A DNA stretch of 64,000 bases from Acinetobacter phage 133. The stretch lies in sequence record HM114315.1; one strand, given 5' to 3'. How positions within the stretch are numbered: the first letter of the stretch is position 1; each line of letters begins with the position of its first letter. The notes below the pieces were generated by a model. That model did not search any database, was not told the origin of the DNA, and saw only the letters and a program-made list of their open reading frames with translations. Made by a program: the position numbers and the translations under genes. Positions 5,974-37,815 of the stretch are shown in pieces.

Positions 5974-7152
5974 TTAGAAGAAATCAAACATATCTGCCAA
6001 TGATGCACGATGTTCATAATGAATATCACATGCTGTACATAAAGCTTGCAATGGTTTAATGAATGATTTGGTGAATAGAGCAGGGTAATCAATTGCATCA
6101 ATTACGTCTTGTCGAATTTCCCGGGGCAATTCTGTTCCAGACGGCCATGCGATCGATTCAGAGTCAAACATATTGCCAGGTTGAAGAGGGAGTATCATTA
6201 CTTTTTCACCTTCACGAATTCGGACCATGCCTGGGAATCCGTCCGCGATTCGGTGATAGGCTAATACTGCTTTGATGTGGCCTGGGCATCCTTTAATTGG
6301 CAACCCCTTCGAGTCACTATATTTGGCAATATTATTGGCAGACGAAACTGATGCAATAGTTTTATAGTTCAATTGACGATACTCTTTTTCGTACTTCAGG
6401 AAGTATTCGTGCAATGAACTTTCACCTTCAATAAGCATCAGTCGAATTGACTCTTTTAATGCTTTTTGTACAGATTTTGGTGTGCTTGATTTCTGAGTTT
6501 CAAGGCCCATGATCTTAAGTTTAGGCTCAACAAAACGAACCCCTTCCATATCCCACACACAAAGAGCGTATCGTTTTTTCGCGGTCCAGAATCCACCCAA
6601 CCCGTGAGAACCGATTGGAGGACAAGCAATAGCTTCTCGGTCCATGAACATTAAATGTTCTCGGTTATTCATGTACTCGCATAGCTCACGATATCCTTTG
6701 TCAATGACTGGTTCCATGTTGTTCTTGCCAAATTTGTCCAGGAAGTCAACCAGCTTAGTTGTGGTGTCAAATTTGTCCATACCGAGTTTATTGATCAATA
6801 GTTCAACGTTTACATAGATAGAATCCGTATCACAATAGAAAACATACTCAAAGTTTGTGGTACCACATAATTGATTGAGATACTCATTTACTTTCCGGGC
6901 AATCCACTGAATAGCTACACGACCAAAGGTTGTAATGGCCGTTGCATTGCGCAGATCATACATACGGAAGTGAATGTTGCCCAGTGCACCGTATAATGAA
7001 TTTAATAAAATTTTTCGGTTCTGCTGGTTTGTGTCGCATTTTATTTCGTATCCATTACATTCAGCCAAGATGCGTTTAAGCTCTTCGTCCGTACATGTTT
7101 CAAGATACGCAATCTCGTCTTCATTAAATTTAATGCCGTAGTTTAATTCCAT
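5974..7152 (-). CDS. 43B: DNA polymerase gp43, C-terminal segment (43B; palm/thumb with YCDTDS motif)
   Basis: Carries the PolB motif C (YCDTDSIYV) and matches the T4 gp43 C-terminal region. Start taken at MELNYGIKF, which has a GGAGA Shine-Dalgarno 5 nt upstream. The ORF track starts at 7179 with a non-ATG codon. Confidence 0.85.
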   Translation of the reverse strand: MELNYGIKFNEDEIAYLETCTDEELKRILAECNGYEIKCDTNQQNRKILLNSLYGALGNIHFRMYDLRNATAITTFGRVAIQWIARKVNEYLNQLCGTTNFEYVFYCDTDSIYVNVELLINKLGMDKFDTTTKLVDFLDKFGKNNMEPVIDKGYRELCEYMNNREHLMFMDREAIACPPIGSHGLGGFWTAKKRYALCVWDMEGVRFVEPKLKIMGLETQKSSTPKSVQKALKESIRLMLIEGESSLHEYFLKYEKEYRQLNYKTIASVSSANNIAKYSDSKGLPIKGCPGHIKAVLAYHRIADGFPGMVRIREGEKVMILPLQPGNMFDSESIAWPSGTELPREIRQDVIDAIDYPALFTKSFIKPLQALCTACDIHYEHRASLADMFDFF

Positions 7153-7170
7153 TATGTCTCCAAAAATAAA

Positions 7171-7190
7171 AAGGACCACTAAGGTCCTTA
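7171..7190 (-). terminator. intrinsic terminator / operator-like hairpin just upstream of the 43B Shine-Dalgarno
   Basis: AAGGACC-nnnn-GGTCCTT hairpin followed on the minus strand by UUUUUAUUUUU, then GGAGA and the 43B ATG. Confidence 0.55.
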
Positions 7191-7206
7191 ATTATATCAA
7201 ATATGA

Positions 7207-7512
7207 CTAAAGCATACGGGCCGGCATATAAGGTGTATTTTTAGCACCTTTTACAGGAACCATAATGCGATCTTCAGACAACATTGTTCTGCACTTTTTA
7301 CACATTGTAATAGTTTCAACTTCAAACATTCGAGACGTTTGAGCATTGCGTTTACTCGCTTGAGTAAAATATGCCTTATGGTTAAATCCCGTGTTTTCAT
7401 ATTTGCCAGTGTATACCCCACGAGTCATTGGATCATGCTCGCAACGAAGTTTAAGTACAATTAATAAACGTTGAATCATTTTCTGTAAAAATTTCATAAT
7501 AAATTCCTTCAT
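7207..7512 (-). CDS. hypothetical small protein with CxxH...CxxC (possible zinc ribbon)
   Basis: 101 aa with RCEHD...CKKC. Last gene of the insertion that splits gene 43. Confidence 0.3.
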   Translation of the reverse strand: MKEFIMKFLQKMIQRLLIVLKLRCEHDPMTRGVYTGKYENTGFNHKAYFTQASKRNAQTSRMFEVETITMCKKCRTMLSEDRIMVPVKGAKNTPYMPARML

Positions 7513-7583
7513 TGGTTTCGTTCATTGTATATTATATTATAGCTTAAGTACATCTATTTAAATTAACCCATCATTGGACACAA

Positions 7584-8321
7584 TCATAATTCCAATTTCC
7601 CGGCAAATTGGGCAATAGGTAGCCACTCTGTTTCTGATTCTTCATCATCTGCCCATGCAAATAATAATTGATCTACAGGACGCGGTGGTTGAGGGCTATG
7701 ACGGATTACATTGACCCATAGTTGCATAGATCCAGACGGCCCTTGCACAATTTCACTAATTGGATACCCTTGAAATAATTCTAAACCTTTATCATCCGTA
7801 ATATGGCGCACCATCACGCCAATTAAGGGATGAATAGGTTTCAAAGGCTTTCCCTCGGGTAAATCATCTAATTGGTACACAATGATGTCCAAATTCGGCG
7901 TTACTTCATTGATGATTTGTTCAATTACAGCCCAGTCACCACCTGCAATTCCAGCACCAATTTTTGGGATACCTACTTCAGGTCGACCTACTATAATGGA
8001 TGGTAAAATGAGGTCTAATTTTGTGAATAATGCGCGAATTGCGGTGTACAGATATTTAGGATCTGCTCGGCCTGGATTAAATTGTGTGTACCCGTTAACA
8101 ATTTTTCCATATGGTGTTTCGGCAAGCGTATATCCACCCCGTTTATCTCGACCATATTGGGTCAGCTTGTCAGCATCATACGCAACTGGAAATTGCTTTG
8201 CAATAGCCGCAGCGATACCAGCGCCCATAGTATGGAAGCAATTGCATCCATGCACAATAGCATCAAATTTACGCTCGCGGAAAGCGTCAAGTAAATCACC
8301 TTTTACGTATTGAGTAATCAT
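7584..8321 (-). CDS. macro-domain (ADP-ribose binding/hydrolase-like) protein with C-terminal extension
   Basis: VHGCNCFHTMGAGIAAAI resembles the macro N-terminal motif (NAAN..GGGV..AI). PKIGAGIAGGDW resembles the second glycine-rich macro motif. The ORF track extends to 8348; the start here is the internal Met MITQYV. Confidence 0.5.
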   Translation of the reverse strand: MITQYVKGDLLDAFRERKFDAIVHGCNCFHTMGAGIAAAIAKQFPVAYDADKLTQYGRDKRGGYTLAETPYGKIVNGYTQFNPGRADPKYLYTAIRALFTKLDLILPSIIVGRPEVGIPKIGAGIAGGDWAVIEQIINEVTPNLDIIVYQLDDLPEGKPLKPIHPLIGVMVRHITDDKGLELFQGYPISEIVQGPSGSMQLWVNVIRHSPQPPRPVDQLLFAWADDEESETEWLPIAQFAGKLEL

Positions 8322-8623
8322 TATTTCTCCTCCGAATAAATGATGCATTGCATGAAAGTATGATAGTCCAAATACACGGTGTCGAGTCCGTCATCACAGT
8401 CAGCCCAAGCAAAATTCAAATAACAATCATCAAATACTTTGCCATCGTTGGTGTAAATTTTCAATCGAGGTGACATATTAGTATCAAAATATGAACGGAC
8501 CTCAACAACATGGCCTGTGATTTCAGGATGAGTTTTATGTTGGTATATTACACCAATTAACGGGTGTAATATAGTAGAGGGCCAGTTAGTCGTACCCTCT
8601 AAAATAGGTAAATGTGGAATCAT
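8321..8623 (-). CDS. hypothetical protein
   Basis: 100-aa ORF inside the gene-43 insertion. Confidence 0.35.
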   Translation of the reverse strand: MIPHLPILEGTTNWPSTILHPLIGVIYQHKTHPEITGHVVEVRSYFDTNMSPRLKIYTNDGKVFDDCYLNFAWADCDDGLDTVYLDYHTFMQCIIYSEEK

Positions 8624-8904
8624 ATTTGCACTCCAAAGAAAGCAGTTAATACTTTAAACGGACGATTCAACGCCTGGTCAGTTAATAGACTATCGGTAGC
8701 CACCATGGTTACCAATTCAGGGCCGCCGTTTGGGCATTGAACATCAAGTGAAACTTTTAAATTACGTACAATATCATCAATTGTTCCACGGTGATTAGGC
8801 ATGGTATTCAACGCTTGATCAATAACCGGGTGTAATTCAACAACAAAACCATCTAGTCCAGGTTGGATAATCATTGGACCAACCATAATGTTAAACTGAT
8901 GCAT
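8620..8904 (-). CDS. hypothetical protein (start at internal Met MHQFNIMVGP)
   Basis: The N-terminal part of the tracked ORF 8620..9084 looks non-coding (R/L-rich). The C-terminal ~94 aa look protein-like. Confidence 0.3.
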   Translation of the reverse strand: MHQFNIMVGPMIIQPGLDGFVVELHPVIDQALNTMPNHRGTIDDIVRNLKVSLDVQCPNGGPELVTMVATDSLLTDQALNRPFKVLTAFFGVQI

Positions 8905-9115
8905 GTTCTTTCTCCGAATAGAAAGTATCAATTTTTTGCGTAACCTCATCCATTGATGCCGCGTCAAATGACGGATGATCAATAAGTGGGCAATACGCTT
9001 CCCAAGAAGTTTCAACCATACCACACCCACATTGGCATGAGCTAGCTGAAGAGGAGAGGTGATACTCGCGGTAAACGATTTCACCCTTTTCTACTGAAAT
9101 TGTAATCTGGCGCAT
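8891..9115 (-). CDS. hypothetical Cys-rich small protein
   Basis: 74 aa with the cluster CQCGCG...CPL. Confidence 0.3.
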   Translation of the reverse strand: MRQITISVEKGEIVYREYHLSSSASSCQCGCGMVETSWEAYCPLIDHPSFDAASMDEVTQKIDTFYSEKEHASV

Positions 9116-9129
9116 GTTAATCTCGCGTT

Positions 9130-9200
9130 TGTTGACATGGAAGAATATTAAACCAATAAAAATATTTTGTAAACCCTAAAACGAAAAAAGGTCCCGAAGG
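9130..9200. repeat. intergenic repeat copy A (aatattaaacc..ataaaaa..gtaaaccctaaaacgaaaaa plus hairpin)
   Basis: Shares a 45-nt consensus with the copies at 27100..27175 and 32225..32295. Confidence 0.6.
9183..9196 (-). terminator. intrinsic terminator embedded in repeat copy A
   Basis: GGTCC-cgaa-GGACC hairpin with an adjacent run (A on plus, U on minus), downstream of ORF 9211..9531. Confidence 0.5.
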
Positions 9201-9210
9201 ACCATAAACC

Positions 9211-9531
9211 CTAGTTGTACTCTTTCTCGTCTACGTAAAACTCGATATCATGCATAATCCCATCGACAGTAACAACACCGGTTTCAAAATTAACATCCTT
9301 GACAAGAAATTTTACACGCCATGGATCAATTGTCCATCCAAATGGAGCTTTGCGATACGGACAAACATAATGTGCATTTGTAATTGTTTTGATTCCATCT
9401 TTAGTATTGATTTGGATTCCAGGGGCTCCAACGAATTGAACTACCCAACGTTCAGAAATGGTGTTACGAATGAAATCGTTATCCGTTGTCAATTTAACTT
9501 TTGATGAATCGAAAGAACTAACTTTAGCCAT
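9211..9531 (-). CDS. hypothetical protein
   Basis: 106-aa ORF followed by an intrinsic terminator. Confidence 0.4.
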   Translation of the reverse strand: MAKVSSFDSSKVKLTTDNDFIRNTISERWVVQFVGAPGIQINTKDGIKTITNAHYVCPYRKAPFGWTIDPWRVKFLVKDVNFETGVVTVDGIMHDIEFYVDEKEYN

Positions 9532-9541
9532 ATCAGTTTAC

Positions 9542-9790
9542 TCATTTTGTTGCATGATTTGATAGAAACTCGTTACGAGCAGCGTTTTGCAAGTCGCGTA
9601 CGAATTGAGTTTTTTGATCTATATCATCCCAACGAACACCATATTGCAGATACCCTTTTTCATCCAGCATCTGGTTGATGCTGGCAATGATCTTTGCTGG
9701 CACTCGGACGCCATTATTAGGACCCAGTGAAAAACAACGGTTATTTTTTAAGGTGAAAATAAGACTAGGAAGCACGATAATTGCACGCAT
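9542..9790 (-). CDS. hypothetical protein (start adjusted to MRAIIV)
   Basis: ORF track 9542..9835; the internal Met avoids overlap with the upstream gene. Confidence 0.3.
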   Translation of the reverse strand: MRAIIVLPSLIFTLKNNRCFSLGPNNGVRVPAKIIASINQMLDEKGYLQYGVRWDDIDQKTQFVRDLQNAARNEFLSNHATK

Positions 9791-9791
9791 A

Positions 9792-10073
9792 TTATTTCTC
9801 CACAGAAGTGTCAACAGGACGAACAGAATCAACATAAACCAGGTTTGCAGTTAGTGCTTTCAGTTCAAGGTCTAAGTTAAAAATAGTAGTGTCATTAATT
9901 GGTTCACCGATGTAACGGTGTAAGGCCGATTCGATATTTGCAACAACTTGTTTATTTGCAAGACGGTCAGCATGGTGAATATCCATTTTAATTGGGCATC
10001 CAGCTTGTACTGTAATTTTTACCATGCCGTAATCAAGAACAATTGGTTGTGTAGCAGATTGGATCAATTTCAT
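9792..10073 (-). CDS. hypothetical protein, first gene of the insertion after 43A
   Basis: 93 aa; its start overlaps the 43A stop. Confidence 0.4.
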   Translation of the reverse strand: MKLIQSATQPIVLDYGMVKITVQAGCPIKMDIHHADRLANKQVVANIESALHRYIGEPINDTTIFNLDLELKALTANLVYVDSVRPVDTSVEK

Positions 10074-11602
10074 TTTTTACGTCTCGCAAGTATTGATTTA
10101 ATTACCTCGGCATTTTGTTCTGCCGTGATCATTTTTTTCTTCCATTCTTTACGCTGTACAAACATTTTAGTGGTTTCAATAGGAATGATTCCCTCTAAAA
10201 CTTTATCGTACATCATACCGTTTGGAGCACAACTAAATTCGGAGCTAGGTCTTGGAGCAGTCTTATCAATATACTGTTCCTGCGTACCGGGGCTAAACAT
10301 ACCACGAATTGTTTCGGGGCTAATATTGACCTGGCGAATAATGCTCGGGTACAAACTTGTTAAGTCAAAGCTCATCACATATTTTTGAAGACTTGGTGGA
10401 ATCTCTTTAACAAACGCACCAGGGAACTTCTGTTTAATGTGGCTTTGTGACTCAGGCAATACTACCTTGGTTTCTTTAAGCGAATTGAATAAAATCGCAT
10501 CCCATGTTTTTACCGGCGAAAGTACCGATCCAATGTTGATCTTAGCGTAATACGCCAAAGCAAGAGACAAGTCAATGAATCCGCGCTTTTTATCAATCAT
10601 CTGTACACAGTACACATCAATGATGTTATAGCTGATGTAACGTTGGTGGTTGGTCTCACGGAGTTTGTTAATAGGACCATCATACTCTAATTTTGAGACA
10701 TCTGTCTCCGCTTCAGAAATATAATCCAATGAATATGACGGTTGAGTCGTAAAGCCGAACTTTTTGTACAAGTCCATATAGTCAAGCACGTTAATTCCAG
10801 CAATGGTGAATAACTCGGCTTCATTATCATACTTATCCCGCATGACTTTTGAAGTTACACGACCAAAAGGTGACATACGCTTGACGAATGTCTGACCCAG
10901 CACATTCTTGATGCGGTTCATCACATATGGAATATCGAACTTGTCACAGTTCCAACCGGTCAACACCGCAGGAGGTTTCTGCTCAAATAAGTTGATATAC
11001 TCAAGCAATAATTCTCGTTCATTGTCAAATGGCATATAGACAACACGATCTAAAATGTGTTGAGGTACCATGTCCCCGCCTTCAGCTTCGGCCTTAGCCG
11101 CTATTTTCGCGCACCATTGATCCACAGTGGCCGATGTACTATGAGTTAAGTCAAATACATAGTAAGCATCATCAATTGAGTCATAATGTGTTATGGCATC
11201 AATCTCGTACACTGCAAGCATTGGTTCAGGGAAGTCAATACCGGTTACCTCGATGTCAAAATAAACAGTGCGGATTTTGGACTTATCGAATTCAACGTCG
11301 TCCTTGTAGATATCGCTGATATACGCCAGACGAAAGTCGTCCATGCCCATAATTTCAACGATGCCTTTTGTCTCGCGCATCCACTGTCGACAAGATGAAA
11401 TCCCATCAAACTTACGAGGTTTAGCATACTTTCCATAGATGTCTTTGTATTCAGACTCATCTTGGGTATGTACGAACATTGTTGGACCATAGTTAACCGA
11501 TCGAATTTGATCCTGTCCATCCACATCAATGTAACGCTCTAAAATTTCACCCCGATTGATGTCAACGTTAATATAAAATTCAGGTTTCATCAATTTCTCC
11601 AA
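10070..11602 (-). CDS. 43A: DNA polymerase gp43, N-terminal segment (43A; 3'-5' exonuclease plus N-terminal palm)
   Basis: 510 aa. Exo I motif FDIEVTG. Matches the T4 gp43 N-terminal half. Stops before the motif-C region, which is encoded separately. Confidence 0.85.
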   Translation of the reverse strand: MEKLMKPEFYINVDINRGEILERYIDVDGQDQIRSVNYGPTMFVHTQDESEYKDIYGKYAKPRKFDGISSCRQWMRETKGIVEIMGMDDFRLAYISDIYKDDVEFDKSKIRTVYFDIEVTGIDFPEPMLAVYEIDAITHYDSIDDAYYVFDLTHSTSATVDQWCAKIAAKAEAEGGDMVPQHILDRVVYMPFDNERELLLEYINLFEQKPPAVLTGWNCDKFDIPYVMNRIKNVLGQTFVKRMSPFGRVTSKVMRDKYDNEAELFTIAGINVLDYMDLYKKFGFTTQPSYSLDYISEAETDVSKLEYDGPINKLRETNHQRYISYNIIDVYCVQMIDKKRGFIDLSLALAYYAKINIGSVLSPVKTWDAILFNSLKETKVVLPESQSHIKQKFPGAFVKEIPPSLQKYVMSFDLTSLYPSIIRQVNISPETIRGMFSPGTQEQYIDKTAPRPSSEFSCAPNGMMYDKVLEGIIPIETTKMFVQRKEWKKKMITAEQNAEVIKSILARRKK

Positions 11603-11607
11603 AAAGC

Positions 11608-11642
11608 ATCAGAACTAATTTTAACATTTAGCCCTGATGCAA
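11608..11642 (-). promoter_or_regulatory. hairpin plus U-tract immediately upstream of the 43A Shine-Dalgarno
   Basis: Minus strand: GCATCAG-22nt-CTGATGC, then UUUUUGGAGAAAUUG-AUG. Confidence 0.4.
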
Positions 11643-12563: not shown

Positions 12564-13523
12564 TTAAATCCATTTCAATGTAAAGGCAAGACGAGCAACC
12601 AACATGCGCATATGTACTTTGTGGGAACCTGCAATACCGTAGAATTGGTTATTTTCGCCCATGATTTCAATTAATTGAACTTTGGATTGATCATCCACTA
12701 AAGGATAAATTTTGTCCATCAGTTGTTCAATTACGCTTGCATAGGAACCGACGTACTTATCGACCATAGGGAAAATCATTTTTACATCTTTTGTACGAAT
12801 TACGTGCATAAGATCTGATAAATCACGTTGTTCCAATACCAGGGTTAAAATACCCGAATCAATCACTTTATTCGAGCTATACAAATCCAGCAAGTTGGTA
12901 ACTTTACGGAAATCAGGGAAGTTCTGTAATACCAGAGCACCCAATACTTTAGGCTCCAGGATTTCGATCCCTTCGTTCGCACAAATTAATTGAGCGCGTT
13001 TAACCATTTGCACCATCATGGATTTGCGATCGGTTTCAGACGGAGTACCAAACTTAATTACTCGAGAACGAGAACGTAATGGCTTAACGATACCTTCCAA
13101 GTTATTCGCAGTAATGATAACTGAACAGTTATCACCGTATGCTTCCATGAAAGTACGCATATGAAGTTGTGCATCTTGTAAACCGTTACGGTCAAATTCA
13201 TCAATGACAATTACTTTTGGTCGACCATCATTTGAAAGAGAAGACGCAAACGTGGTTAACGGACCTCGCACAAAATCAATTTTACAATCAGACCCATTTA
13301 CAAACAACATATGGGCGTCAACACCATTGCATAATGCTCGTGCCACTGTTGTTTTGCCAGTACCAGGCTGGTCTGAATGTAGAATAAGATGCGGAATATT
13401 TCCAGATGCCACAATTGCTTTAAGAATGGCCTTATCCGCAGCAGGTAAAATGCACTCGTCAATATTATCAGGACGGTACTTCAATTCGAACATATGTTGG
13501 GTTTTATCAATTGAAAGTGTCAT
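12564..13523 (-). CDS. 44: clamp loader large subunit gp44 (AAA+)
   Basis: 319 aa. Walker A GTGKTT. Extensive identity to T4 gp44 (KYRP..IDECILPA, SNCSIIITANN). Confidence 0.9.
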   Translation of the reverse strand: MTLSIDKTQHMFELKYRPDNIDECILPAADKAILKAIVASGNIPHLILHSDQPGTGKTTVARALCNGVDAHMLFVNGSDCKIDFVRGPLTTFASSLSNDGRPKVIVIDEFDRNGLQDAQLHMRTFMEAYGDNCSVIITANNLEGIVKPLRSRSRVIKFGTPSETDRKSMMVQMVKRAQLICANEGIEILEPKVLGALVLQNFPDFRKVTNLLDLYSSNKVIDSGILTLVLEQRDLSDLMHVIRTKDVKMIFPMVDKYVGSYASVIEQLMDKIYPLVDDQSKVQLIEIMGENNQFYGIAGSHKVHMRMLVARLAFTLKWI

Positions 13524-13532
13524 TTTTTCACC

Positions 13533-14222
13533 TTAGAAACTGTGGCTTGAAGTTTTTTCTACAGAGATAATGTGCAATGCGCTTGCACTTTCGAAGCATG
13601 ATGCAATCTGCTTATCTTTAGCAAAGAACTTCACTTTATAATCATCCACTGGAATTTTCATGTTCTGCATATGAAGTACAAACTTAAATGGGGTGTTTAC
13701 TGGGCATGGCCCCATGTCAAGCGATACTAAAGGATTTGCTAAGTCTGCATCAGTAATGCGGTTGTAGCCGTCCATTACAATGCGATCGTCTTTCTTAGAA
13801 ACGGCGATCAAGTCAACAGCCAAGGCACGGGACACTCGTGTAAATTGTGACCAGTCATCGGATTTTAATTCAAACTCAATGGTCCCAGGTGGGAATACTG
13901 CAGTGCGAGCAGGAGTTAGAATTTTTTCAACATCAATTGTCGGCCAATAAATTACAGAACGCTCGCCTCGAATCGCTAAGCTGCCGTCAACCACCGTCAC
14001 ATTGGCATCTGCATCGGCAAGTTGCAAAATTGATAAGAAACCTGCTAAATCATGAATCGCGCATTCAATATCAATATTATCTTCAATTGTCGCATGGGCA
14101 TAGTTCGTAGTTGCACGGTTTGCAGTGCGGACCAGGTTGCCCGGGGTCAAATGAATTGATGGGTTAATAGTTGCAAAGTTTTTAAGCACAGCAATAGTAT
14201 TTTTACTAAATTTCATATTCAC
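13533..14222 (-). CDS. 45: sliding clamp gp45
   Basis: 229 aa. N-terminus M.FSKNTIAVLKNFATIN matches T4 gp45. Confidence 0.9.
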   Translation of the reverse strand: MNMKFSKNTIAVLKNFATINPSIHLTPGNLVRTANRATTNYAHATIEDNIDIECAIHDLAGFLSILQLADADANVTVVDGSLAIRGERSVIYWPTIDVEKILTPARTAVFPPGTIEFELKSDDWSQFTRVSRALAVDLIAVSKKDDRIVMDGYNRITDADLANPLVSLDMGPCPVNTPFKFVLHMQNMKIPVDDYKVKFFAKDKQIASCFESASALHIISVEKTSSHSF

Positions 14223-33860: not shown

Positions 33861-33937
33861 GGCGGCGCCGTGAAGGACTCGAACCCTCGATGGCGGATTT
33901 GGAATCCGCAGTGTTTCCAACTACACTAACGACCCTT
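33861..33937 (-). tRNA. tRNA-Trp(CCA)-like, possibly degenerate
   Basis: D-arm GTGT/ACAC. Anticodon arm GCGGA-TTCCAAA-TCCGC. T-arm GAGGG-TTCGAGT-CCTTC. The acceptor stem has a G-G mismatch and an irregular 3' tail. Confidence 0.3.
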
Positions 33938-33939
33938 AA

Positions 33940-34626
33940 TTATTTAAACATTTTTCGACCTTTAATCCAACCTTTCGGAATAGGGTCATTTTTATTTATT
34001 CGAGTAGATTTTCGCTCTTCTAAAGAGTGAATCCACATTTTACCAAACTGTGAATTTTTTTCGCCTTTCTGATGTTCTATTTCTGTAAAGGTTTTCTTGA
34101 CTTTTTCAATCGATTCAGGCTTATGTCTTCGTCCCGACCACGGGTGACCGTTTTTATCGAAAGCATCTTTTATTGAATTTGAAACAAGTTCTCTATACCC
34201 TGGGTTAGTCCACATTTTTATAGCAGATAAGCTCATATTAGAAATAAACTTTTCGTTATAGCCTGGTATTTCCAACCTTTTCCGCTGCCGTGCATTTCCA
34301 GCAAGACGTGCTCTTTTACTCATTTCTTGAGCGTCTTTATTCAGATGATCCCAACCGCCTTGTCCACCCAATTTAATATTGTAAGTATCAGAACGATCAA
34401 TAAAATCCTGGTCAACAATTAAAGATTCAATTTCAAACATCTCTTCTTCAGAATCGTGCATCATCAAAATATCTTTCTTGAAATTTTCGATACCGTGTTT
34501 TGAAATAGATCTTTTTAAAATTTTACCTGAGCCCATGTAGCCGTCTTCAAGATTTGCGGTCTTATGAACTCCGACATAAATTTTACCATTTATCAAGTTG
34601 GTAATCTTGTACGTGTAAAAATGCAT
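33940..34626 (-). CDS. GIY-YIG homing endonuclease (full length, Seg-like)
   Basis: HFYTYKITNLINGKIYVGVH...YMGSG..NIKLGGQGG. 228 aa with a basic C-terminal DNA-binding-like region. Sits next to the tRNA cluster, as T4 segB does. Confidence 0.65.
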   Translation of the reverse strand: MHFYTYKITNLINGKIYVGVHKTANLEDGYMGSGKILKRSISKHGIENFKKDILMMHDSEEEMFEIESLIVDQDFIDRSDTYNIKLGGQGGWDHLNKDAQEMSKRARLAGNARQRKRLEIPGYNEKFISNMSLSAIKMWTNPGYRELVSNSIKDAFDKNGHPWSGRRHKPESIEKVKKTFTEIEHQKGEKNSQFGKMWIHSLEERKSTRINKNDPIPKGWIKGRKMFK

Positions 34627-34680
34627 GAGTATCCTCGAATTGTAACGTTACAAGGATATTTATACTCATGCAATAATTTG

Positions 34681-34755
34681 GTGGTAATTGGTGGACTCGA
34701 ACCACCGACCTACGGATTATGATTCCGCTGCTCTACCTACTGAGCTAAACTACCG
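34681..34755 (-). tRNA. tRNA with CAT anticodon (Met or Ile2), copy 1
   Basis: Folded by hand. Acceptor GGTAGTT/AATTACC. D-arm GCTC..GAGC. Anticodon arm GCGGA-ATCATAA-TCCGT. T-arm GGTGG-TTCGAGT-CCACC. Confidence 0.65.
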
Positions 34756-34759
34756 GAAG

Positions 34760-34831
34760 CGAGGACACGATTTGAACGTGCGCGTAAGAGGTTATGAGCC
34801 TCTCATTCTACCAGGCTGAAGTTACCTCGCA
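34760..34831 (-). tRNA. tRNA with CAT anticodon, copy 2
   Basis: Anticodon arm AGAGG-CTCATAA-CCTCT. T-arm GCACG-TTCAAAT-CGTGT. Acceptor GCGAGG/CCTCGC. Confidence 0.55.
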
Positions 34832-34926
34832 ATAATTTGGACGGGTTTTTGAATTTAAGTACGGACTGATTGGTCATGCTAAACTTAAATCCGTGGATTT
34901 CCTGCAATCCACATGCCATGTGCGCA

Positions 34927-35002
34927 ATTGGCAATTTGGCAGACCCGACGGGTTTCGATCCCGCTACCTCCCGCGTGACAGGCGGGTGCTCTTCCGATTG
35001 AG
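34927..35002 (-). tRNA. tRNA-Asp(GTC)
   Basis: Anticodon arm CCCGC-CTGTCAC-GCGGG. D-arm GCTC..GAGC. T-arm GCGGG-ATCGAAA-CCCGT. CCA encoded. Confidence 0.65.
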
Positions 35003-35018
35003 CTACGAATCTATAATT

Positions 35019-35231
35019 TTACATCAAACATAAACTTGTAGCAACCCATTGATTTTGACGGGTCACATGATCAGTAGCGCTTGTTTCATTTGATACTCTA
35101 TGCCCAATTGGACTGGAAATATCTGGTTTTGATGAACGGTGCCCAGTTAAAATACCGGGTATTTTAACTGTTCGATTTGGATAACGAACTAGGCTAAAAT
35201 CTTTCTTGAGCTCGGATTCATATAAACTCAT
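35019..35231 (-). CDS. hypothetical small ORF within the tRNA cluster
   Basis: 70-aa ORF between tRNA-Asp and tRNA-Gln; coding status uncertain. Confidence 0.2.
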   Translation of the reverse strand: MSLYESELKKDFSLVRYPNRTVKIPGILTGHRSSKPDISSPIGHRVSNETSATDHVTRQNQWVATSLCLM

Positions 35232-35249
35232 CTTATACTCACTTAAAAA

Positions 35250-35324
35250 ATGGAAGTCGCAAAAGGAATCGAACCTTTACTAACAGAGTCAAATTCTGTG
35301 GTGCTACCGTTACACCATGCGACA
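35250..35324 (-). tRNA. tRNA-Gln(TTG)
   Basis: Anticodon arm ACAGA-ATTTGAC-TCTGT. T-arm AAAGG-TTCGATT-CCTTT. Weak 1:72 pair. CCA encoded. Confidence 0.65.
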
Positions 35325-35417
35325 ATTATTAGTTTTTGATCTGTTGAACTATAACAACAGCTCGATGGTAAGTTCATCGAGTCTCAAGAAGTGTATTTCT
35401 ACACTTAGACTAAAATT

Positions 35418-35494
35418 GGTCTCCCATGTTGGATTTGAACCAACGACATCTTCTTTCCAAAAGAAGTAGGCTACCAGACTGCCCTAATGAGAGA
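35418..35494 (-). tRNA. tRNA-Pro(TGG)
   Basis: Acceptor CTCTCAT/ATGGGAG. D-arm GGGC..GCCT. Anticodon arm CTTCT-TTTGGAA-AGAAG. T-arm GTTGG-TTCAAAT-CCAAC. CCA encoded. Confidence 0.7.
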
Positions 35495-35499
35495 TAAAA

Positions 35500-35575
35500 T
35501 GGTCGTCGAGGCTGGATTCGAACCAGCGACCACCGGATTATCGGTCCGATGCTCTACCAACTGAGCTACTCGACG
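35500..35575 (-). tRNA. tRNA-Ile(GAT)
   Basis: Acceptor CGTCGAG/CTCGACG. D-arm GCTC-AGTTGGTA-GAGC. Anticodon loop CCGATAA. T-arm GCTGG-TTCGAAT-CCAGC. CCA encoded. Confidence 0.65.
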
Positions 35576-35820
35576 GTAATATGTACTTTATTGTCAATGC
35601 GTACTATTCGGAACTTGCCATGGGGCAAATAAAAAACATCATAAGACTTACCACAGTATAAAACGGGTTCACGTATAACTGGGGCATTTGAATATTGTTC
35701 TTCAATGCAGTTAAATCCATGATTACGAAGTTGTTGAACAACTTCAAGTGATGTTTTATGACAGTGTTTAATAACAAGGCCAGGTTTTGTTCTAAATAGA
35801 CCAAACATAAAAATACTCAC
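35566..35820 (-). CDS. hypothetical small protein within the tRNA cluster
   Basis: 84-aa ORF. Confidence 0.3.
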   Translation of the reverse strand: MSIFMFGLFRTKPGLVIKHCHKTSLEVVQQLRNHGFNCIEEQYSNAPVIREPVLYCGKSYDVFYLPHGKFRIVRIDNKVHITVE

Positions 35821-35823
35821 AAT

Positions 35824-35915
35824 ATGGAGGTAAGACTGGGATTCGAACCCAGGGACGCCCGAAAGCGTCAGTGGTTTTCAAGACCACCGCAATAAGCCAG
35901 ACTCTGCCACCTTAC
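35824..35915 (-). tRNA. tRNA-Ser(TGA), long variable arm
   Basis: 92 nt. Anticodon arm GTGGT-CTTGAAA-ACCAC. Variable arm TGACGCTTTCGGGCGTC. T-arm CTGGG-TTCGAAT-CCCAG. CCA encoded. Confidence 0.7.
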
Positions 35916-36223
35916 CATTATTAGCTAATTAAACCTCAACGAGGAAATCTTACGCTAGACAAGTTACCCTTCCCGGGATTGCCTAAACACGGCCTGGATT
36001 ATTAGTCCACGCTATAACGGATTTTACAAATTATGTCGGTTAATGATCATAAATCACTAAACGAAATAATCTAAATGTGCCTACCAGGAAAGCAAATTAC
36101 GTGCAAGCACAACCTGGTCATTGGTCACATACTGTTAGGGTTGCTCCAAACCGACTAAGGTTCGTAAGGCCCCAGATTGTGTTCATCATCGGCTGATCAA
36201 TGCCTAGAAACAATCTTAACAAT

Positions 36224-36299
36224 TGGCTCCCCAGGTACGGTTCGAACGTACGACCAACGCAGTAACAGTGCGTCGCTCTACCAACTGAGCTACTGAGGA
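36224..36299 (-). tRNA. tRNA-Asn(GTT)
   Basis: D-arm GCTC-AGTTGGTA-GAGC. Anticodon arm ACGCA-CTGTTAC-TGCGT. T-arm GTACG-TTCGAAC-CGTAC. CCA encoded. Confidence 0.7.
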
Positions 36300-36305
36300 A
36301 TAATC

Positions 36306-36381
36306 TGGTGCCGTCACTAGGATTCGAACCCAGGACCTGACGATTACAAATCGCCTGCTCTACCATCTGAGCTATAACGGC
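36306..36381 (-). tRNA. tRNA-Thr(TGT)
   Basis: Acceptor GCCGTTA/TGACGGC. Anticodon arm GGCGA-TTTGTAA-TCGTC. T-arm CTGGG-TTCGAAT-CCTAG. CCA encoded. Confidence 0.7.
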
Positions 36382-36382
36382 A

Positions 36383-36459
36383 TGGTGTTCATACGGGGAT
36401 TTGAACCCCGGTTACCAACGTGAAAGGCTGGCGTCCTAGACCGCTGGACGATATGAACA
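36383..36459 (-). tRNA. tRNA-Glu(TTC)
   Basis: D-arm GTCC..GGAC. Anticodon arm CCAGC-CTTTCAC-GTTGG. T-arm CGGGG-TTCAAAT-CCCCG. CCA encoded. Confidence 0.65.
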
Positions 36460-36544
36460 TGGCGAGTGTGGACCGAGTCGAACGGTCAGTGCTTGCGGCG
36501 GCGGATTTACAATCCGCTGGGGTTACCAATTTTCCTACACACTC
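36460..36544 (-). tRNA. tRNA-Tyr(GTA), long variable arm
   Basis: Acceptor GAGTGTG/CACACTC. Anticodon arm GCGGA-TTGTAAA-TCCGC. T-arm GACCG-TTCGACT-CGGTC. CCA encoded. Abuts tRNA-Glu with no spacer. Confidence 0.65.
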
Positions 36545-36571
36545 AATATACGTTTATTTATAACGCAAAAA

Positions 36572-36647
36572 TGGACCCCCTCACAGGACTCGAACCTGTA
36601 TAAATCGCAATAGAACTACGATGCCTAATCCATTCGGCCAGAGAGGG
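36572..36647 (-). tRNA. tRNA-Arg(TCT)
   Basis: Acceptor CCCTCTC/GAGGGGG. Anticodon arm TCGTA-GTTCTAT-TGCGA. T-arm ACAGG-TTCGAGT-CCTGT. CCA encoded. Confidence 0.65.
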
Positions 36648-36743
36648 ATTATTAAGTTTAACCGCAATTTGGACAAGGGAAATAACGTACAGTTTGACCA
36701 CAACCTGAGCAATAATGCCCAATGGTAGAATAAATTTGATACT

Positions 36744-37091
36744 TCATTTTGATTTCCTTTTATTCCAATGACCTAAGTCTTTTATGTGAATAAGTGACTT
36801 AATTACGATAACGCCCGTGTCTTCGTAGTAGTTTCCGAAGTACGCAATGTGCTTTGACTTAGCGATAAAGGAGTTTTTCCCATATCGAGAGTCCCGCATA
36901 TTAACTTTACCCGGAGACATATGACTAGCCATATTAATTGTAGCAGTGGCGAAGTCATTGCGTAGAAAAACTACAGGATTAGTCAATTCATATTTTGACA
37001 TGAAAAGTTTGAAACGCTGAACGATTCGTTGTTTTGCATGACCTGAAAAGTGAACAGGAGCTCGACCGAAATTTGAAAACACTGGACTCAT
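36744..37091 (-). CDS. hypothetical protein within the tRNA cluster
   Basis: 115-aa ORF. Confidence 0.35.
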   Translation of the reverse strand: MSPVFSNFGRAPVHFSGHAKQRIVQRFKLFMSKYELTNPVVFLRNDFATATINMASHMSPGKVNMRDSRYGKNSFIAKSKHIAYFGNYYEDTGVIVIKSLIHIKDLGHWNKRKSK

Positions 37092-37363
37092 TCTAATTCT
37101 ACCAATTGTTTTCTTGTAATTTTCGCCGGTCGAAGCTTTAAAACTTTTTGACCTAATGCACCCGCATATATTACAACTAAAGAATGCGTGATATCTTCTA
37201 CAGTATAACGTACATTATCGGTGCAAATGTCATCAAGAGTATTCGCTTCGCGAAAGTCATCATCGGTTAAAACTAAACACGATGTACGTAAGTATTGTCG
37301 CTGTACTTCATTTAACATAATAAATTCCTCATAATATATCCGAGAGGGGAGCAATTGCAACAA
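37088..37363 (-). CDS. hypothetical protein within the tRNA cluster
   Basis: 91-aa ORF. Confidence 0.35.
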   Translation of the reverse strand: MLQLLPSRIYYEEFIMLNEVQRQYLRTSCLVLTDDDFREANTLDDICTDNVRYTVEDITHSLVVIYAGALGQKVLKLRPAKITRKQLVELE

Positions 37364-37379
37364 GACTCTCGGCTAATTT

Positions 37380-37467
37380 TGGCGGAAAGAAGAGGACTCG
37401 AACCTCAACCGATTTCTCAGTCCACTCGCTTAGCAGGCGGTGCATGTCCCATGACAGTTTACTTTCC
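37380..37467 (-). tRNA. tRNA-Ser(GCT)-like, long variable arm
   Basis: 88 nt. T-arm GAGG-TTCGAGT-CCTC. Acceptor GGAAAG/CTTTCC. Anticodon loop CTGCTAA in a stem with a bulged A. CCA encoded. The D-arm is atypical. Confidence 0.45.
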
Positions 37468-37474
37468 ATAATTT

Positions 37475-37550
37475 TGGAGGTGTCAACTGGACTCGAACCA
37501 GTATCGACGCGGATTTGCAATCCGCCGTATGACCATTCTACCATGACACC
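37475..37550 (-). tRNA. tRNA-Cys(GCA)
   Basis: Acceptor GGTGTCA/TGACACC. Anticodon arm GCGGA-TTGCAAA-TCCGC. T-arm ACTGG-TTCGAGT-CCAGT. CCA encoded. Confidence 0.65.
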
Positions 37551-37655
37551 ACGTAGAGGATTCAAACCTCTTAGCACTGTGCGGATTTACGTGAACCATT
37601 CTTTCAATGGAATCGAACCATATACGACCCAGGCAGCGCCTTCCACCTTGGTATT

Positions 37656-37731
37656 TGGAGCGGTTGACGAGATTCGAACTCGCGACATCTGACTTGGAAG
37701 GACAGCACTCTACCATCTGAGTTACAACCGC
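37656..37731 (-). tRNA. tRNA-Gly(TCC)
   Basis: Acceptor GCGGTTG/CAACCGC. D-arm ACTC-AGATGGTA-GAGT. Anticodon loop CTTCCAA (one T:T mismatch in the stem). T-arm GCGAG-TTCGAAT-CTCGT. CCA encoded. Confidence 0.65.
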
Positions 37732-37739
37732 AATTAATC

Positions 37740-37815
37740 TGGTGGGCCCAGCAGGACTCGAACCTGAAACCAACGGATTATGAGTCCGCTGCTCTGCCAA
37801 TTGAGCTATAGGCCC
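37740..37815 (-). tRNA. tRNA with CAT anticodon, copy 3
   Basis: Acceptor GGGCCTA/TGGGCCC. D-arm GCTC-AATTGGCA-GAGC. Anticodon arm GCGGA-CTCATAA-TCCGT. T-arm CAGG-TTCGAGT-CCTG. CCA encoded. Confidence 0.65.

Follow-up and report, generated by a model that had tools for sequence, protein, structure and literature searches.

Gene 43 of Acinetobacter phage 133: a family-B DNA polymerase in two cistrons parted by a cassette of eight small genes

We have analysed a window of 64,000 nucleotides from Acinetobacter phage 133 (sequence record HM114315.1), and in it gene 43, which encodes the counterpart of the DNA polymerase gp43 of phage T4. On the minus strand of the window gene 43 is present as two genes, 43A and 43B, parted by a gene-bearing insert of ∼2.9 kb, and this confirms an arrangement that had been put forward from the letters of the sequence alone (hereafter the original prediction), at the coordinates then given. 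We consider it very probable that this is a natural bicistronic gene 43 encoding a heterodimeric family-B DNA polymerase (PolB) with its break at the tip of the fingers, that an ancient insert of accessory genes lies between the cistrons, and that 43B is expressed from signals of its own. The replicative polymerase of phage 133 would accordingly be made as two polypeptides.

That gene 43 of phage 133 is split, with about 3 kb between the cistrons, is already known: the gene entered GenBank in 2004 and the arrangement was published in 2006, and split genes of this kind have since been annotated in dozens of Acinetobacter phages. Hansen et al. (2011; PMC3061061), who cite Petrov et al. 2006, name phage 133 among the phages with a "bicistronic, split fingertip" gp43, and they give a distance of up to 3 kb between the cistrons in the Acinetobacter phage. 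Arbiol et al. (2010; PMC2839356) describe gp43 as bicistronic in Aeromonas and Acinetobacter phages, with PeSL-like sequences between g43A and g43B, and the ZZ1 genome paper also reports a split gene 43. The Aeromonas precedent that the original prediction had cited is correct but incomplete. What we add is comparative: the conservation of the family to which the first gene of the insert (o1) belongs, the collinearity of the insert with that of phage Ac42, an insertion or deletion (indel) that includes a single gene (o3), the expression module that precedes 43B, and relatives in which the locus carries a probable intron or a homing-endonuclease gene (HEG).

Both halves are derived from a polymerase. 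Aligned with T4 gp43, the product of 43A covers residues 3-501 (E 1.9e-203) and that of 43B residues 514-897 (residues 514-903 of RB69 gp43; E about 1e-151), such that the two combined are homologous from end to end to the solved T4/RB69 gp43. Their lengths, 506 and 392 residues, add up to 898, the length of T4 gp43, and with the alignment contiguous across them we can uphold the view that the gene is split rather than truncated. Pfam places DNA_pol_B_exo1 and the initial third of DNA_pol_B on 43A, and the following part of DNA_pol_B on 43B. Each of the motifs that mark a family-B polymerase of the T4 gp43 type is found on one half or the other: gp43A has the exonuclease motifs (FDIE, NCDKFD and YNIIDV) and motif A, while gp43B has motifs B and C and KKRY (Table 1). 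The C-terminal tail of gp43, which in T4/RB69 binds the clamp, is part of gp43B. Both genes are under strong purifying selection, with ratios of non-synonymous to synonymous substitution (dN/dS) of 0.03-0.04. They are exact matches to the deposited phage 133 proteins AAT38486.1/YP_004300669.1 (43A) and AAT38494.2/YP_004300660.1 (43B), between whose entries lie eight further accessions.

The two cistrons start separately, each at an ATG served by a ribosome-binding site of its own. The program-made list of open reading frames (ORFs) gives 43B as 5974-7179 (401 aa) and 43A as 10070-11602 (510 aa, from the first TTG). We place the start of 43B at the ATG at 7152, with a Shine-Dalgarno (SD) sequence, GGAG (7158-7161), 5 nt ahead of it; the original prediction had both this site and the resulting length of about 392 aa, including YCDTDS, right. 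For 43A it had the end at 10070 and the FDIE motif right, but not the length of 510 aa. The TTG start was rejected because the ATG at 11590 has an SD sequence (GGAG, 11597-11600, 6 nt ahead) and because the 506-aa form is the deposited protein, while the 510-aa form has no exact match. Upstream of 43A, past the regA stop codon, a hairpin at 11606-11640, a candidate terminator or translational operator, folds at -19 kcal/mol (z -2.35) and is followed by a T run and GGAGA, an arrangement like that before 43B. We also observed that the ribosome-binding contexts of the two cistrons are near-identical over 13 nt (TTTTTGGAGA[A/C]AT; 7154-7166 and 11593-11605), with a hairpin ahead of each; this could be chance, or could be a shared translational control site, such as that of gp43 autoregulation in T4.

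Table 1. Features of the gene 43 locus of phage 133 (positions in the window)
Feature	Position	Strand	Description
Region ahead of 43A	11597-11640	minus	13-bp-stem hairpin 11606-11640 past the regA stop, T run, SD GGAG
Gene 43A	10070-11590	minus	506 aa; N-terminal and 3'-5' exonuclease domains, first palm part, first fingers helix
Exo I motif FDIE (gp43A)	11249-11260	minus	aa 111-114
Motif A DLTSLYPS (gp43A)	10343-10366	minus	aa 409-416
o1 (Acj133p087)	9792-10073	minus	93 aa; phrog_21960; exact match to phage 133 protein; dN/dS 0.10
o2	9542-9790	minus	82 aa from internal ATG 9790
o3 (Acj133p085)	9211-9531	minus	106 aa; phrog_18665; exact match to phage 133 protein
Terminator-promoter module	9145-9203	minus	hairpin GGTCC-TTCG-GGACC and T run 9190-9203; TTTACA-N17-TAATAT 9145-9173
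o4	8891-9115	minus	74 aa; Cys-rich; dN/dS 0.11
o5	8620-8904	minus	94 aa from internal ATG 8904; phrog_36432
o6	8321-8623	minus	100 aa; HPLIGV...FAWAD domain
o7 (tk.4/'phosphatase')	7584-8321	minus	245 aa; macro domain (aa 1-151) fused to HPLIGV...FAWAD domain
o8	7207-7512	minus	101 aa; last cassette gene
43B expression module	7158-7214	minus	Mot-box-like TGCTTTA, -10 TATAAT, hairpin, T run, SD GGAG
Gene 43B	5974-7152	minus	392 aa; second fingers helix, palm with motif C, thumb, C-terminal tail
Motif B KILLNSLYG (gp43B)	6988-7014	minus	
Motif C YCDTDS (gp43B)	6820-6837	minus	
KKRY (gp43B)	6568-6579	minus	
C-terminal DMFDFF (gp43B)	5977-5994	minus	

The original prediction left the exact split point to an alignment with T4 gp43, and that alignment places it between T4 residues 501 and 514, at the tip of the fingers domain (residues 469-572 in RB69). 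The two cistrons part between the two fingers helices, leaving motif A on gp43A and motifs B and C on gp43B, and this is what makes the enzyme a "split fingertip" polymerase. In the T4/RB69 alignment the halves abut; ∼10 residues of the fingertip linker are unaccounted for, and there are no extra residues. An alignment of the junction puts the break at the identical column in phage 133, Ac42, Acj61, AB1I1M-1, Kimel and Aeromonas 44RR, and this column sits in a linker that is uninterrupted in three intact enzymes. Acj9, which is annotated as split 43A/43B, was left out of the junction alignment.

Because the catalytic carboxylates are divided between gp43A and gp43B, neither half should polymerise alone, and the two must then associate non-covalently. 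By analogy with the Aeromonas enzymes, gp43A and gp43B would form a heterodimer in which the two palm segments complement each other, as do the two fingers helices. The Edgell review (PMC2988022) states that the halves of the phage 25 polymerase co-purify and have polymerase activity, and according to two secondary accounts the active association of equivalent halves was demonstrated biochemically in Aeromonas phage 25 and/or 44RR.

Expression of 43B can be considered separately from that of 43A. Between o8 and the 43B start codon there are, in order, a Mot-box-like TGCTTTA (7208-7214), a spacer of 11 nt, a -10 sequence TATAAT (7191-7196), a hairpin with a 7-bp stem (AAGGACC-TTAGT-GGTCCTT, 7171-7189), a T run and the GGAG of the SD sequence. 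In five relatives with widely differing flanks, the TGCTT box, ATATAAT and GGAG upstream of 43B do not vary. The hairpin is also kept in them, but its stem has three different sequences, with changes that preserve pairing and so amount to covariation. MotA and AsiA are both annotated in the relative Ac42. These sequence features make it probable that 43B has a MotA-type middle promoter to itself; it would be translated from its own SD sequence on a middle-mode transcript of its own, and the stem-loop ahead of it would block read-through from the genes upstream. Inside the insert a terminator-like hairpin had been noted, and it is indeed there, but it is one of two (7171-7189 and 9190-9203) rather than the only one. 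The surroundings of both hairpins, at 7158-7214 and 9145-9203, have the form described for PeSL and PmSL sequences, namely an intergenic promoter, sigma-70-like or of the Mot-box type, adjoining a stem-loop at a variable ORF; 'PmSL' denotes the variant with a Mot box and a stem-loop (Comeau et al. 2014; PMC4122927).

Some of the data weigh against our reading of the locus. Across the window the Mot-box pattern shows no significant enrichment: 4 occurrences were found against 1.9 expected, and 7 of 100 shuffled sequences reach 4. It is for this reason that we base the case for a middle promoter on conservation in relatives and not on statistics. The hairpins are modest, at -10 to -15 kcal/mol. 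Furthermore, the assembly of the phage 133 subunits into one enzyme is extrapolated from the Aeromonas phages 44RR and 25.

The interval between the halves (7207-10073) is filled by eight small co-directional ORFs on the minus strand, which we call o1 to o8. Their number and orientation agree with the original prediction, though three starts were moved to internal codons (o2 to 9790, o5 to 8904 and o7 to 8321). Seven of the eight have a counterpart in the relative L085, at ∼80% nucleotide identity; six of these pairs have dN/dS values of 0.02-0.13, and the o6 pair is saturated. Given the low dN/dS, we take the seven ORFs shared with L085 to be real genes. PHROG matches were obtained for half of the eight (o1, o3, o5 and o7), and a Pfam match for o7 alone.

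The ATG of o1 overlaps the stop codon of 43A (ATGA), by which 43A and o1 would be translationally coupled. An AlphaFold model of o1 (pLDDT 74) has an alpha+beta fold without an informative fold match. The C-terminus of o2 is unlike that of its L085 relative and lies at the edge of the o3 indel described below. In the Ac42 cassette, the gene Ac42p093 encodes a protein with 49% identity to o5. The o7 protein, an exact match to YP_004300662.1, belongs to phrog_335 (E 1.8e-65); its Pfam Macro match is under the cut-off, and when the eight insert proteins were scanned with PADLOC and NCBIfam the sole return was a weak match of o7 to a DarG-type macro domain. The HPLIGV and FAWAD motifs are common to o6, the C-terminal part of o7 and Ac42p091, with an hhalign probability of 93% over 26 columns between o6 and o7. 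We note also that the macro domain of o7 is found alone at other genomic sites in other Acinetobacter phages. Homologues of o8 are the last cassette gene in Ac42 (Ac42p089, 27% identity), L085 and L088, and in L087 the fifth of the six cassette ORFs seen.

Megablast with 5.8 kb of the locus and with 24 kb from other parts of the window gave no near-identical record in the phage collection searched, which seems to lack phage 133. To judge by protein comparison, the closest polymerases to that of phage 133 are those of Ac42 and Acj61 (61-65% identity), both of which are annotated 'gp43A/gp43B split DNA polymerase'. The distance between 43A and 43B is 2.9 kb in phage 133, and varies from about 50-70 nt in 44RR through 2.0 kb in Kimel, about 2.4 kb in Acj9, 2.5 kb in Ac42 and 3.0 kb in AB1I1M-1 to 4.0 kb in Acj61. 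A gene of the o1 family, phrog_21960, comes first after 43A in every split Acinetobacter phage examined (phage 133, L085, Ac42, Acj61, AB1I1M-1, Kimel and Acj9). Homologues were found at loci L001, L002, L003, L005, L085 and L091, and a tblastn search with the Acj61 member returned 68 records, all but one of them named Acinetobacter phages, at positions that fit the gene 43 locus. The family was not found in 44RR, nor did any of its members lie closer than 10 kb to an intact gene 43. Less was recovered by other routes: at database level, tblastn with o1 found Ac42 only and with o8 nothing, and when viral contigs were searched with an alignment of o1, only Ac42 and Acj61 came up. For these two genes local comparisons and comparisons of hidden Markov models were required.

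The Ac42 cassette has four families of the insert (o1, o5, the domain shared by o6 and the C-terminal part of o7, and o8), arranged as in phage 133 and with protein identities of 27-49%, and on this ground we regard the cassette as old and vertically inherited, with internal turnover. Such turnover is directly visible in the o3 indel, in which 9204-9577 of phage 133 (o3 and the altered o2 C-terminus) is replaced by 17 bp in L085, L094 and L095. The module at 9145-9203 is conserved in L085 and forms the downstream edge of this indel. Homologues of o3 lie at other genomic positions, as in Acj9 (a protein 82% identical) and in L094 (a protein near gene 47, 61% identical). From the sequence pattern we infer that o3 was gained or lost by recombination at the terminator-promoter module, in a manner that matches the PeSL shuffling of T4-type phages. 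We see the insert as a small hyperplastic region, neither intron nor mobile element, in which eight accessory genes are expressed. It would have come down from the ancestor that the split-polymerase Acinetobacter phages have in common, and been remodelled since by gain and loss of genes at terminator-promoter modules.

Some relatives carry further DNA at the locus. In L094 (9233-10352), and also in L095 and L096, 43A is interrupted within motif A (DLTSL | YPS; equivalent to 10352/10359 in the window) by ∼1.12 kb that encodes a 276-aa homing endonuclease of the HNH type (phrog_12434, E 1e-100). Both ends of the insert in L094 match group I introns in Rfam, but the scores (21.9 and 23.4 bits) fall short of the gathering score, which is 50. 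This insert, which is absent from the window, is probably a group I intron bearing a HEG. In L095 the space between 43B and the o8 homologue is occupied, just upstream of 43B, by a 344-aa homing-endonuclease-like gene (phrog_655, E 2e-27; 13158-14192, on the opposite strand); it calls to mind the freestanding HEG that Aeromonas phage 25 has ahead of 43B. The first ∼90 nt of 43B in L095 cannot be aligned to phage 133 by blastn. In the distant T4-like viral contigs L041 and L056 the parts that match 43A and 43B lie 541 and 706 nt apart, an indication that distant lineages have received other insertions, independently, at the split site or close to it.

Such observations raise the possibility that the insert in phage 133 is itself mobile and active, whether transposon-like or propelled by a homing endonuclease, and is a recent invader of gene 43. 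The locus does attract mobile DNA, as the HEGs within 43A of L094-L096 and before 43B of L095 attest, and splitting of gene 43 in association with HEGs is discussed in PMC2988022. Yet neither of the marks of mobility that the original prediction had raised, flanking repeats and endonuclease genes, was found at the insert. None of its eight ORFs matches an endonuclease (GIY-YIG and HNH included), intein, integrase or transposase family in Pfam, PHROGs, PADLOC or NCBIfam; short direct or inverted repeats around it are at chance level; and no step in base composition was seen at its borders. The ends of the cassette and several of its inner genes are, moreover, collinear with Ac42 at a level of protein identity that speaks for an ancient rather than a recent arrival. 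We consider a recent mobile invader very unlikely.

A second possibility is that the 2.9 kb is an exceptionally large ORF-bearing group I or group II intron, or that the halves are trans-spliced, giving a single gp43 mRNA. Group I introns do exist in gene 43 of phages 25 and JSE, and the insert in 43A of the metagenomic relatives of phage 133 is a probable HEG-bearing intron. However, between 5500 and 12100 Rfam gave no intron match at E<=1, and only one small RNA match at chance level, in a search that does detect the intron halves in L094. The overlap of the 43A stop codon with the o1 ATG means that the insert begins as translated sequence, which fits an intron boundary poorly. The purifying selection on seven of the eight insert ORFs, the two terminator-like hairpins and the promoter-like sites within the insert, and the conserved SD sequence and promoter module of 43B itself all speak against joining at the RNA level, and we regard this explanation as extremely improbable.

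A split intein might instead join the halves as proteins; split inteins are known in other replicative polymerases, cyanobacterial DnaE for one. In phage 133, against this, the end of gp43A and the start of gp43B coincide with the points at which the T4/RB69 alignment stops and resumes, leaving no residues for intein halves, and there are no Hint or intein matches in Pfam. A split intein therefore has next to no likelihood. The original prediction would have been undone by an intron or intein signature, or by a half that was not polymerase-derived; Rfam, Pfam and the alignment gave none of these.

That the split is an artefact of assembly or sequencing, or a gene in decay in a phage that uses another polymerase, is a notion for which we found no supporting points, and to which we give hardly any credence: independent metagenomic contigs from several samples have the same 43A/43B organisation, the catalytic motifs are intact, dN/dS is low in both halves, and the split arrangement recurs in dozens of isolated phages.

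The natural bicistronic gene 43 that we favour leaves room for a role of o1 in the enzyme. Its position directly after 43A throughout the split Acinetobacter phages examined, where it is kept at 22-33% identity, and its coupling to 43A in phage 133 are what might be expected if o1 worked together with the split polymerase, perhaps as its third subunit or as an assembly factor. But the Aeromonas split polymerases do without o1, the gene has a promoter of its own in other Acinetobacter phages, and its predicted fold is uninformative. We think such a partnership unlikely.

As to which form of the gene came first, in a crude neighbour-joining tree the clade of intact forms, made up of T4, CC31 and a pair of IMG/VR contigs with intact gp43 (L012 and L014), falls inside the split forms. 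Support at one relevant node is 100%, while the other, key nodes have 42-74%. It may be, tentatively, that the split state is ancestral and that the intact T4-type gene is a re-fusion. In sliding windows, the likeness of split forms to one another exceeds that of split to intact forms around the junction only (0.53-0.62 versus 0.45-0.50), a pattern that is tentatively compatible with an ancient split followed by re-fusion, with local exchange of the junction region, or with shared constraints on the new termini.

These results present phage 133 gene 43 as a natural example of a replicative PolB that withstands a fingertip break, and of an essential core gene that can host a hyperplastic region of accessory genes. 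They also mark gene 43 as a site that repeatedly attracts promoter-stem-loop modules, homing endonucleases and introns. For the T4-like Acinetobacter phages they offer some small leads: the universal first cassette gene, the conserved Mot-box/stem-loop module before 43B and, in metagenomic relatives, the intron-like insert with a HEG in motif A. Elsewhere in the window, at 33864-37815 on the minus strand, we observed a cluster of 16 transfer RNA (tRNA) genes whose DNA is partly similar to the tRNA clusters of Acj61 and ZZ1.

Among known systems, the deposited phage 133 entries (AAT38486-AAT38494, NC_015250; Petrov et al. 2006, J Mol Biol 361:46) are the same locus, with 43A, 43B, o1, o3 and o7 identical and all placed on one contig of 159,801 nt. 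The other members of the Twarogvirinae considered here (Ac42, Acj61, Acj9, ZZ1, Kimel and AB1I1M-1) resemble phage 133 in having a multigene cassette, of 2.0-4.0 kb, with an o1-family gene first, and the polymerases of other Acinetobacter T4-like phages are 58-65% identical to that of phage 133. They differ from it in cassette content, for which overlap was seen with Ac42 only (4 of 8 families), and in the sequence that follows 43A, which is a terminator and a promoter in the other split Acinetobacter phages and the ATGA overlap in phage 133. The split gp43 of the Aeromonas phages 44RR2.8t, 31, 25 and 65 (Petrov et al. 2006, 2010) likewise consists of two cistrons, each with its own start, and in 44RR the junction alignment puts the fingertip break where it is in phage 133. 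Between the cistrons, however, 44RR has a short untranslated promoter/stem-loop sequence instead of a gene cassette, phage 25 has a freestanding HEG and a group I intron that phage 133 lacks, and neither of these two phages has a multigene cassette or an o1 homologue. The PeSL/PmSL cassettes of T4-type phages share with the phage 133 insert a promoter and stem-loop bordering variable ORFs, although in phage 133, where two modules were examined, recombination is deduced from a single indel, that of o3. Outside the phages, and in unrelated lineages, engineered split Pfu polymerase is also a PolB assembled from two polypeptides with a break near the fingertip, whereas the PolB of Methanothermobacter is made as two polypeptides but is split in the palm, with its genes 85 kb apart.

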